The position numbers and the translations under genes were made by a program. This document shows, in pieces, positions 36,204 through 36,671 of a stretch of 64,000 bases of DNA (within the stretch, counting starts at the first letter, position 1; the number at the start of each line of letters is the position of its first letter). The notes beneath the pieces were generated by a model. It had not been told where the DNA came from. It saw only the letters and a program-made list of their open reading frames with translations, and searched no databases. Source of the stretch: an uncultured Bacilli bacterium (GTDB lineage: Bacteria; Bacillota_I; Bacilli_A; RF39; UBA660); the NCBI GenBank assembly GCA_944332715.1, contig CALVKN010000001.1:13415-77414 (forward strand). The letters are read 5' to 3'.

Positions 36204-36470
36204 TTTTCTTACACCTCTTTATTCTATATTTAAATATTACCAAAATATGCAAAAAAAGTAAACATTTTTATGTAAATTTTTATAAAATTAATTAAATATT
36301 TTAATAGCCATGTCGAAATTTGTCATACGATTTTTCTTGTATTTTTAATATTTTAACTTTAGAATAATTAACCGTTACCCATAGTGGGAGCGTCTGCTAA
36401 CTTTTAGTAATTATTGCGTTTTTTTCGGGGGTTTTCTTCGGGAGAAATCTTTAGTGAAGGAAGTGATGCC

Positions 36471-36554
36471 ATGAACGACAAAATATTTTGTCAAGTAATT
36501 ATAATTCTGGTACTCGTACTTTTTAGTAATAGAGGCCAAGCAAAAAGGCGCTAA
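36471..36554 (+). CDS. 27-aa hydrophobic peptide (putative type I toxin), copy C
   Basis: SD GAAGGAAGTGA. MNDKIFCQVIIILVLVLFSNRGQAKRR. Confidence 0.5.
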   Translation: MNDKIFCQVIIILVLVLFSNRGQAKRR

Positions 36555-36606
36555 AATAGCGCCTACCTTTTAGTAGATGCTCCCCACCACTATGGGTAAC
36601 ACTTAC
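36538..36606 (-). ncRNA. predicted antisense sRNA, copy C; ends are approximate
   Basis: The terminator stem is AGGCGCT/AGCGCCT (36546-36564). It carries a compensatory pair change relative to copy A. Confidence 0.45.
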
Positions 36607-36671
36607 ATATATAATATACCAAACTTTTATAAATTATTCAATCTTTTTTCAAAATAAAAAGTATAAGCATA

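Follow-up and report, generated by a model that had tools for sequence, protein, structure and literature searches.

Type I toxin–antitoxin (TA) families have been reported solely from Proteobacteria, Firmicutes and Tenericutes (PMC12390103). The subject of this analysis is a repeated unit of about 330 bp in a 64,000-nucleotide stretch of DNA from an uncultured Bacilli bacterium (contig CALVKN010000001.1, positions 13,415 to 77,414; this whole stretch is called the window), in which a small hydrophobic peptide, a candidate toxin, is encoded opposite a predicted antisense RNA. The described systems that come closest are of three kinds. The txpA/RatA, bsrG/SR4, bsrE/SR5 and yonT/SR6 pairs of Bacillus subtilis have convergent promoters and an antisense RNA lying over the mRNA's 3' end. 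Both txpA and yonT are silenced by RNase III (PMC3531473). In the par/Fst system of Enterococcus faecalis (RNA I/RNA II, Fst/Ldr superfamily) the terminator is shared by both RNAs, RNA I's extreme 5' end is sequestered by the intramolecular 5'-UH while further structure masks the Shine-Dalgarno sequence (SD), and as their signature the peptides carry a conserved Trp, placed after the transmembrane (TM) helix and before the charged C-terminus, together with a P/D/S/TXXXG(C) motif (PMC7472228). In hok/Sok (E. coli R1) and aapA1/IsoA1 (Helicobacter pylori) a long-distance 5'–3' contact keeps the full-length toxin mRNA locked, inert and stable, and metastable pairings are encoded (PMC9841398; bioRxiv 10.1101/615682 = PMC6733600).

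The unit in the window resembles each of these in part. With the Bacillus 3'-overlap systems it shares the convergent promoters, an antisense RNA predicted to lie over the mRNA 3' end, a Firmicute host, a small hydrophobic peptide, a chromosomal multi-copy or island location and, as the expected outcome, degradation of the duplex. It differs from them in showing no similarity of peptide or RNA sequence, in having shorter peptides (23-29 aa) and in its antisense RNA, which would be only about 70 nt long, would target one strand of a 5'–3' clamp (a helix between the two ends of the mRNA) and would have its terminator embedded in the last codons and the stop codon of the toxin. With par/Fst it has in common convergent promoters, a hairpin present in both transcripts, whose complementary loops could start a kissing contact, a peptide with charged N-terminus, hydrophobic core and charged C-terminal tail, and a helix that would sequester the 5' end, the clamp beginning no more than 4 nt from the predicted start; the last likeness is one of analogy and does not imply homology. 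Unlike par, the units have no DRa/DRb direct repeats, their arms are inverted repeats, the 5' part of the antisense RNA is homologous rather than complementary to the mRNA 5' end, and in most subfamilies the hairpin is not the mRNA's own terminator (the sense tail is not U-rich). The Fst/Ldr signature is missing as well: there is no Trp in the 44 peptide variants, hence none conserved between TM segment and tail, and no consistent PXXXG(C), and 16 peptide queries (11 distinct representatives against Pfam, 8 against NCBIfam) gave no hit to Fst at E <= 10. The likeness to hok/Sok and aapA1/IsoA1 is the 5'–3' long-distance mRNA interaction. In those systems the antisense RNA covers the 5' region or the translation start and activation is by 3' trimming, whereas here the predicted antisense RNA lies opposite the 3' strand of the clamp; the phyla are different and there is no sequence similarity.

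As judged by sequence, the units are not members of the Bacillus 3'-overlap, par/Fst or hok/aapA systems. The three copies in the window and about 57 homologues probably form a previously undescribed type I TA-like family with an arrangement of its own, a reading held with reasonable but incomplete confidence.

Anatomy of the repeated unit

The window holds three copies of the unit, A, B and C (coordinates in Table 1). They align at 83% mean column identity, the ends being nearly invariant and the middle divergent, and a 19-mer from the 5' arm occurs three times against none expected, which is beyond chance. All three have the same order of parts: a promoter, the 5' arm, a leader of ~95 nt, an SD, an open reading frame (ORF), a hairpin whose loop contains the stop codon, the 3' arm and, on the opposite strand, a convergent extended -10 promoter. 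Across the copies the sense promoter reads TTGTAT/TTGCCT-17-TAGAAT (TTGCCT in copy A, with the spacing found in C) and the predicted start lies no more than 4 nt before GTTACCCATAGTGG; in other subfamilies it reads TTGCAA-16-TATAAT at an equal distance from the 5' arm. The 3' arm is GTAGATGCT(A/C)CCCACCACTATGGGTAAC. The antisense promoter is TTGAAT/TTGATA-17-TGnTATATT, and no part of the unit is more strongly conserved than its -10 block. When the mRNA was folded from the predicted start to the 3' arm its ends were paired, with energies of -80 and -86 kcal/mol (z = -7.7 and -7.4 against shuffles), and the duplex of the copy C 5' arm with its own 3' arm had an energy of -43.6 kcal/mol.

A first-pass annotation of this DNA had proposed that copy C shows compensatory base changes in both the stop-codon hairpin and the long-range helix. 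The location of copy C and every string quoted from it agree with the sequence. The hairpin changes from AGACGCT-aaaat-AGCGTCT in copy A to AGGCGCT-aaaat-AGCGCCT in copy C, a two-sided replacement of A-U by G-C in which the codon change AGA to AGG is synonymous (both Arg) and the partner change of T to C sits beyond the stop codon. As described, the copy C 5' arm segment GGGAGCGTCTGC (36386-36397) pairs unbroken with GTAGATGCTCCCC (36573-36585) if G·U pairs are included, and copy A has a G·A mismatch or a bulged A at the same spot. Covariation between paralogues holds for the hairpin, with the single true compensatory pair in the window, but not for the long-range helix, where both copy C changes are one-sided: A-U becomes G·U through the 5' arm, in common with all C-like copies, and G·A becomes G-C through the 3' arm, in copy C alone. 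Read from the sequences, these are compatible single changes and not covariation. The annotation also had the peptide keeping a length of 27 aa and a KRR end. The length is right for copy C (MNDKIFCQVIIILVLVLFSNRGQAKRR) but copies A and B encode 26 aa, and the KRR end is indeed shared but is encoded by the terminator A-run plus stem and is thus confounded with constraint at the RNA level.

Just 5' of the sense -35 lies a conserved 20-nt box with the consensus (A/G)TGTCGAAnTTTG(T/C)C(A/G)nACG, found also in copy A (14730-14749), in copy B (22784-22765, minus strand) and in the A- to E-type homologues. From its sequence and position it could be an operator or an UP element. In the homologous locus L004 an ATG within the box opens a spurious 78-aa ORF (P0001), and a profile search of 5.8 billion proteins returned this over-called ORF as its single match, through which L004 was reached; the peptides are too short for gene calling.

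The G+C content of the whole window is 26-30%, and the units are local GC-rich patches of 35-42%. Apart from 20-24 kb and 60-64 kb, where the genes change direction, the window has a strongly negative GC skew.

Covariation and strand assignment of the stems

Homologues were collected with sequence patterns. Exact patterns for either the outer helix or the 5' arm matched just three near-identical B-like loci. Most loci came from looser patterns aimed at the 3' block, made up of the end of the 3' arm and the antisense -10, with a GGGTAAC anchor. An nhmmer search over the pattern loci then gave about 80 hits and, after removal of duplicates, 57 unique full-length units. They come from human-gut metagenome contigs and about 15 metagenome-assembled genomes (MAGs) labelled uncultured Bacilli, 'Tenericutes' UMGS910, Candidatus (Ca.) Onthocola and Ca. 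Coprovivens. Loci L016 (Magnetominusculus), L017 and L061 were discarded as chance pattern matches.

The outer helix and the hairpin were tested in a MAFFT alignment of the 57 sequences (A3). Standard pairs occupied 92.2% of the cells and eight pairs, in 62 cells, were changed on both sides. The covariation score was 0.193 against 0.116 for shuffles (0/500), and slid controls paired at 31-44%. At the hairpin pair singled out by the first-pass annotation (columns 215:258) 41 sequences have AU and 10 have GC; at the next pair but one (217:256) 34 have GC and 21 have AU; and in the outer helix a G-C pair is replaced by U-A in 18 sequences. Among the C-like copies alone, which are closely related, the hairpin occurs as AGACGCT/AGCGTCT, as AGGCGCT/AGCGCCT (copy C of the window) and as AGACACT/AGTGTCT (L008), and these three states mean two independent double substitutions.

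RNAalifold on the plain MAFFT alignment recovered the clamp in part, because bulge positions and register differ between subfamilies, and alignment-free tests were added for the same reason. Cognate 5' and 3' arms formed duplexes with a mean energy of -33.1 kcal/mol, compared with -26.4 kcal/mol for permuted partners (0/10000); with one representative for each of the 13 arm clusters the values were -34.8 and -26.4 kcal/mol (0/20000). In the inner helix there are up to six pair types per position when partners are indexed by 5'-arm column. A covariance model was also built, trimmed to 215 positions with 30 pairs, and its 53 matches form alignment A5, in which 88.9% of cells pair and 17 of the 30 pairs change on both sides, including six of the nine inner-helix pairs. 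Here the score was 0.193 against 0.128 for shuffles (0/500), and slid controls scored at most 0.051 and paired at 28-51%. A5 is a subset of the family, since the default filters of cmsearch lost about one-third of the units, including A, B and several seed sequences (L001, L022, L060 and others), probably through the composition-bias filter acting on AT-rich DNA. The long-range helix thus covaries extensively across subfamilies, and compensatory pairs occur in both stems among the 57 homologues. The earlier proposal that both stems are under selection is supported, and it is on these sequences and not on the three paralogues that it stands.

The strand on which each structure is used can be judged from G·U pairs, because a G·U pair becomes an A·C mismatch on the complement. 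For the clamp, 46 of 52 sequences favour folding on the sense strand, and G·U pairs number 119 against 24. The stop-codon hairpin shows the opposite preference: 32 sequences favour the antisense strand and 12 the sense strand, and G·U pairs number 30 against 8. In the family consensus the 5' hairpin of the antisense RNA and the seventh pair of its terminator are kept solely through U·G/G·U pairs on the antisense strand. This asymmetry indicates that the clamp is a structure of the mRNA and that the hairpin is primarily an antisense terminator.

The three copies and the family at large are predicted to have an intrinsic terminator and a convergent promoter with an extended -10. On the antisense strand a terminator scan detected the hairpin with a T-run behind it in each of the three copies; on the sense strand the signal was weak and confined to copy C. 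The stop-codon hairpin is best read as the Rho-independent terminator of a convergent antisense RNA. The predicted RNA of about 70 nt folds as a 5' hairpin, the terminator hairpin and a U-run, and is fully complementary to the last codons, hairpin, spacer and 3' arm of the mRNA. The long ORFs that flank the units tend to run opposite to the toxin strand: on the 3' side they do so in 35 cases out of 52, and on the 5' side in 25 out of 30, counts that include orthologous loci. The antisense promoter sits at the stop codon of an antisense-direction gene, which it abuts at copy B and overlaps at copy A, and copy C has it about 30 nt beyond the stop codon of a short ORF (36672-36881). From this layout the antisense terminator may also end the adjoining antisense-direction gene, and read-through from that gene could supplement the antisense RNA.

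Four segments, namely the inner 5' arm (S1), the hairpin's 5' half (S2) and 3' half (S3) and the inner 3' arm (S4), allow more than one pairing. S1 and S3 are nearly identical to each other in every subfamily (AGCGTCT/AGCGTCT in A-type units, AGTGTCT/AGTGTCT in L008, AGTGCCT/AGTGCCT in D-type units and AGCGCCG/AGCGCCG in the G-type L026). The pairings S1:S4, S2:S3, S1:S2 and S3:S4 are each cognate-specific (0/5000 permutations each); of the same-sense controls, S1:S3 is not and S2:S4 is weakly so (17/5000). In 51 of 52 sequences the sense strand gives the more stable version of the local S3:S4 pairing. Cognate specificity of all four pairings implies that at least one alternative pairing is also selected, which suggests a refolding pathway. 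It is possible, though somewhat doubtful, that the toxin mRNA is a four-segment strand-exchange switch, in which S2 and S4 are complementary to both S1 and S3, S1:S2 + S3:S4 would flip to S1:S4 + S2:S3 and back at almost no energy cost, and the antisense RNA would attack the deciding strand. S1:S2 + S3:S4 would then form co-transcriptionally or after 3' trimming and S1:S4 + S2:S3 would be the full-length clamped state.

The small peptide and the distribution of the family

All 57 homologues share one alignment position for the start of the ORF, and 53 of them have it intact, with 23-29 aa. An SD precedes the start codon by 4-9 nt in every unit. Gaps among intact ORFs are multiples of three and differences counted along a minimum spanning tree number 43, 23 and 49 at codon positions 1, 2 and 3, so that position 2 is the least variable. 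The hydrophobic core is preserved across subfamilies while the nucleotides diverge. The predicted product has the generic features of a type I TA peptide, being hydrophobic and of membrane type, with a core of 14-16 residues and its own SD. There are at least eight peptide types: MNDNEFYLVMI..IKEKRR, MNDKIFCQV..GQAKRR, MSNNIFYQLV..IEKRHRK, MKEE..LLVIIILLIVVILRLI, MNEDIFLQV..QKKDANK, MSEKLFFQLV..DKDATRK, MNEEHFFQLV..NNKDANN and, with a TTG start, MNEDLYLLVV..KKDADK. The A-run and the 5' half of the hairpin code for the basic C-terminal tail (KRR, KKDA.., KRHRK), which so mirrors the U-run and stem of the antisense terminator; E-type peptides end before the hairpin and lack a basic tail.

The GGGGG run, which almost every subfamily has in its leader, may, from its sequence, act as an anti-anti-SD. 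In G-type units the G-run lies 4 nt after a CCUCC anti-SD.

No relevant Rfam family was found, either in the window at the gathering threshold or in copy C on both strands at E <= 10; at the latter setting the cmscan hits to copy C were at chance level (DapZ, 17.6 bits; BTnc049, 17.1 bits).

Each MAG has seven to eight or more units. Tandem arrays of two or three units of mixed peptide subfamilies, arranged head to tail about 50-100 nt apart, occur in L013 (6277-7329; E-type, C-type, A-type), L024 (5078-5738), L025 (4186-5313), L010, L011 and L012. The flanks of the window are syntenic with these MAGs at 79-83% identity, which places the window in a species related to, but distinct from, theirs. 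The units in L005 and L014 are orthologues of copy A and are 87% identical to it, compared with 79% for the flanking gene. These two are decayed copies (L005 4013-4371, L014 6624-6982) in which a 1-nt deletion truncates the ORF to 16 aa, and L014 has additional 5'-arm mismatches. Elsewhere L042 (5498-5827) has a premature stop at codon 5 and in L053 (361-731) a 2-nt deletion replaces the C-terminal half of the peptide. The site of copy B (window 22447-22860) is empty in L020 (7366-7560) and L047 (7066-7250), where an ordinary terminator takes its place and the tRNA-Arg gene alongside has the reverse orientation; sequence comparison makes this a presence/absence polymorphism with rearrangement. 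No plasmid or phage gave a blastn match to copy A, and the viral contigs gave 0 hits apart from the one chance pattern match (L061), which carries no unit. Lineage restriction, the multi-copy state, decayed copies and variable presence are typical population features of type I TA systems.

A contig binned as Muribaculaceae (L027) carries two family units. This bin assignment is probably wrong because all other hosts are uncultured Bacilli or 'Tenericutes' MAGs.

Table 1. Coordinates, in window numbering, of the features of the three units and of other features in the window
Feature	Position	Strand	Remarks
Copy C unit	36310..36641	+
Upstream box, copy C, ATGTCGAAATTTGTCATACG	36310..36329	+	upstream of sense -35; two direct TGTCG-like half-sites
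Sense promoter, copy C, TTGTAT-17 nt-TAGAAT	36337..36365	+	read from sequence; predicted start ~36372
Clamp 5' arm, copy C, outer GTTACCCATAGTGG + inner S1 GAGCGTCTGC	36374..36397	+
Candidate anti-SD tract ACUUUU, copy C	36400..36405	+	directly 3' of clamp 5' arm; pairs with SD in minimum free energy fold
Leader G-run GGGGG, copy C	36427..36431	+	nearly invariant columns in alignments A3 (columns ~75-79) and A4; copy A 14844-14848
SD AGGAAG, copy C	36458..36463	+	7 nt before ATG
Candidate toxin ORF, copy C, MNDKIFCQVIIILVLVLFSNRGQAKRR + TAA	36471..36554	+	27 aa
Stop-codon hairpin, copy C, AGGCGCT-aaaat-AGCGCCT	36546..36564	-	followed by UUUUUGCUU on minus strand; predicted antisense intrinsic terminator
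Clamp 3' arm, copy C, S4 GTAGATGCTC + CCCA bulge + CCACTATGGGTAAC	36573..36600	+	also predicted antisense target
Antisense promoter, copy C, TTGAAT-17 nt-(TG)n TATATT	36613..36641	-	extended -10, convergent
Predicted antisense RNA, copy C	36537..36606	-	~70 nt; candidate antitoxin; ends inferred
Copy A unit	14730..15051	+
Promoter, copy A	14757-14785	+
5' arm, copy A	14794-14817	+
ORF, copy A	14885-14965	+	26 aa
Hairpin, copy A	14957-14975	+
3' arm, copy A	14983-15010	+
Antisense promoter, copy A	15051-15023
Copy B unit	22784..22461	-
Promoter, copy B	22757-22729	-
5' arm, copy B	22720-22697	-
ORF, copy B	22627-22547	-	26 aa
Hairpin, copy B	22554-22538	-
3' arm, copy B	22529-22502	-
Antisense promoter, copy B	22461-22489	+
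tRNA-Arg(TCT)	22858-22934	+	beside copy B
tRNA-Arg(CCT)	42721-42796	-
312-aa ORF	35265-36203	-	just upstream of copy C; N-terminal hydrophobic segment, then long Glu/Lys-rich low-complexity region
glmS ribozyme	61074-61220	+	Rfam RF00234, 69 bits

Rival readings, proposed mechanism and significance

The same RNA architecture could serve a small membrane protein that does no harm, acting as a regulator or an accessory subunit, with its expression tuned by an antisense RNA in cis, in which case there would be no TA pair. Such a protein would suit the weak sub-threshold hydrophobic matches of the peptides, the only family matches there are, which are to small membrane proteins such as MgtU (E = 7e-4 to 0.03), and also the presence of units at conserved syntenic sites (copy A and its counterparts in L005 and L014). 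Set against this, seven to eight or more copies per small genome, tandem arrays, fast divergence into at least eight peptide types, frequent pseudogenes and presence or absence between genomes are typical of type I systems and unusual for housekeeping small proteins, and such elaborate predicted silencing, by clamp, masked SD and antisense RNA, suggests that the product must be kept off. A harmless product is accordingly thought unlikely. That the unit is a structured non-coding RNA gene with a fortuitous small ORF is much harder to accept and has only a slight chance of being right. RNA-level signals are much stronger than protein-level ones and the ORF is below gene-caller length with no family match, but a correctly spaced SD stands in every unit, the start position is common to all homologues with 53 ORFs intact, gaps in intact ORFs are in frame, the second codon position is depleted in changes, hydrophobicity is kept across subfamilies of little nucleotide identity, and no Rfam family matches.

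Two further readings deny the clamp a role in the mRNA, and the G·U asymmetry argues against both, that is, against a DNA-level inverted repeat and against a short mRNA without the 3' arm. In one of them the unit is a DNA-level repeat, like a miniature inverted-repeat transposable element or a recombination element, whose terminal inverted repeats GTTACCCATAGTGG / CCACTATGGGTAAC are kept for a DNA-binding enzyme while the RNA stems are incidental. The multi-copy, intergenic state, the tandem arrays, the copy beside a tRNA gene and the insertion polymorphism would all fit. Yet conservation reaches well past the inverted repeats on both sides, over the promoters; the arms vary by compensatory change and are not fixed recognition sequences; 119 G·U against 24 A·C-type positions would be meaningless for DNA; SD and in-frame ORF are conserved; and there is no associated transposase gene, no match among plasmids or phages, and no unit in the one viral match. 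This origin of the repeats is considered highly improbable. The other, also very unlikely, has the hairpin terminating transcription in both directions, after the manner of par/Fst; the sense mRNA would end at the stop codon without the 3' arm, and the 5' arm and the antisense 5' end would share a motif such as a protein-binding site. A shared terminator is the par/Fst paradigm (PMC7472228) and in copy C the sense side is also T-rich after the hairpin (ACCTTTTAGT), but the sense tail is not U-rich in A-type, B-type and most other units (ACAACTAG, GAAACATAG). A shared motif would moreover predict symmetric transitions, whereas the differences overwhelmingly preserve sense G·U pairing, and bulges and register shifts preserve complementarity, not identity. 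The DNA inverted-repeat element, the bidirectional terminator with short mRNA and the pure non-coding RNA were rejected on the grounds given for each.

Several points nevertheless weigh against a type I TA-like family. No family, and no known toxin family, was found for 11 distinct representative peptides in Pfam/NCBIfam. The hydrophobic stretch is short at 14-16 residues, and the ratio of synonymous to non-synonymous changes, 35:64, is only mildly different from neutral. Predicted masking of the SD is only moderate, with a family-wide SD pairing probability of 0.66 by thermodynamic prediction, of which 0.47 is with nt 25-70. A scan of 15011-15120, 22400-22501 and 36601-36720 found no intrinsic terminator for the sense mRNA 3' of the 3' arm; the layout suggests that the mRNA 3' end may arise from read-through followed by trimming to the clamp. 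Relatedness between the sequences inflates the shuffle tests, an effect mitigated by the slide controls and by permutation at the level of representatives, and anchoring of the search on GGGTAAC and the antisense -10 makes the invariance of the outermost 7 bp and of the antisense promoter partly a matter of ascertainment.

If the units are a type I TA-like family the following mechanism can be proposed. A sigma-70-type promoter would give an mRNA of about 230 nt whose first nucleotides pair about 200 nt downstream in a clamp of 23–27 bp. The clamp would enclose the leader, an SD partly masked by the pyrimidine tract beside the 5' arm and the 23–29-codon ORF of the hydrophobic peptide. It would bury the 5' end, as does the 5'-UH of par RNA I, and would be expected both to stabilise and to silence the mRNA, restraining translation together with the pyrimidine tract. 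From the convergent extended -10 promoter an antisense RNA of about 70 nt would be made, ending at the stop-codon hairpin. Its binding to the 3' arm would open the clamp and the resulting duplex of about 70 bp would be degraded, as by RNase III in the case of txpA/RatA. The peptide, presumed to be toxic, would then be made only when the antisense RNA falls.

Type I TA families are narrow and hard to find by homology. The units would add a TA family from uncultured small-genome gut Bacilli, the 'Tenericutes'-like MAGs, Ca. Onthocola and Ca. Coprovivens. Their layout would join features known separately, the 5'–3' clamp of hok and aapA1 and the 3'-overlapping antisense RNA of txpA/RatA, with an antitoxin that would target one strand of the clamp and have its terminator written into the last codons of the toxin. 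An RNA terminator can in this way dictate the basic C-terminus of a peptide, and the at least 57 natural variants, with their abundant compensatory changes, already provide a mutational map for the study of mRNA locking and refolding.

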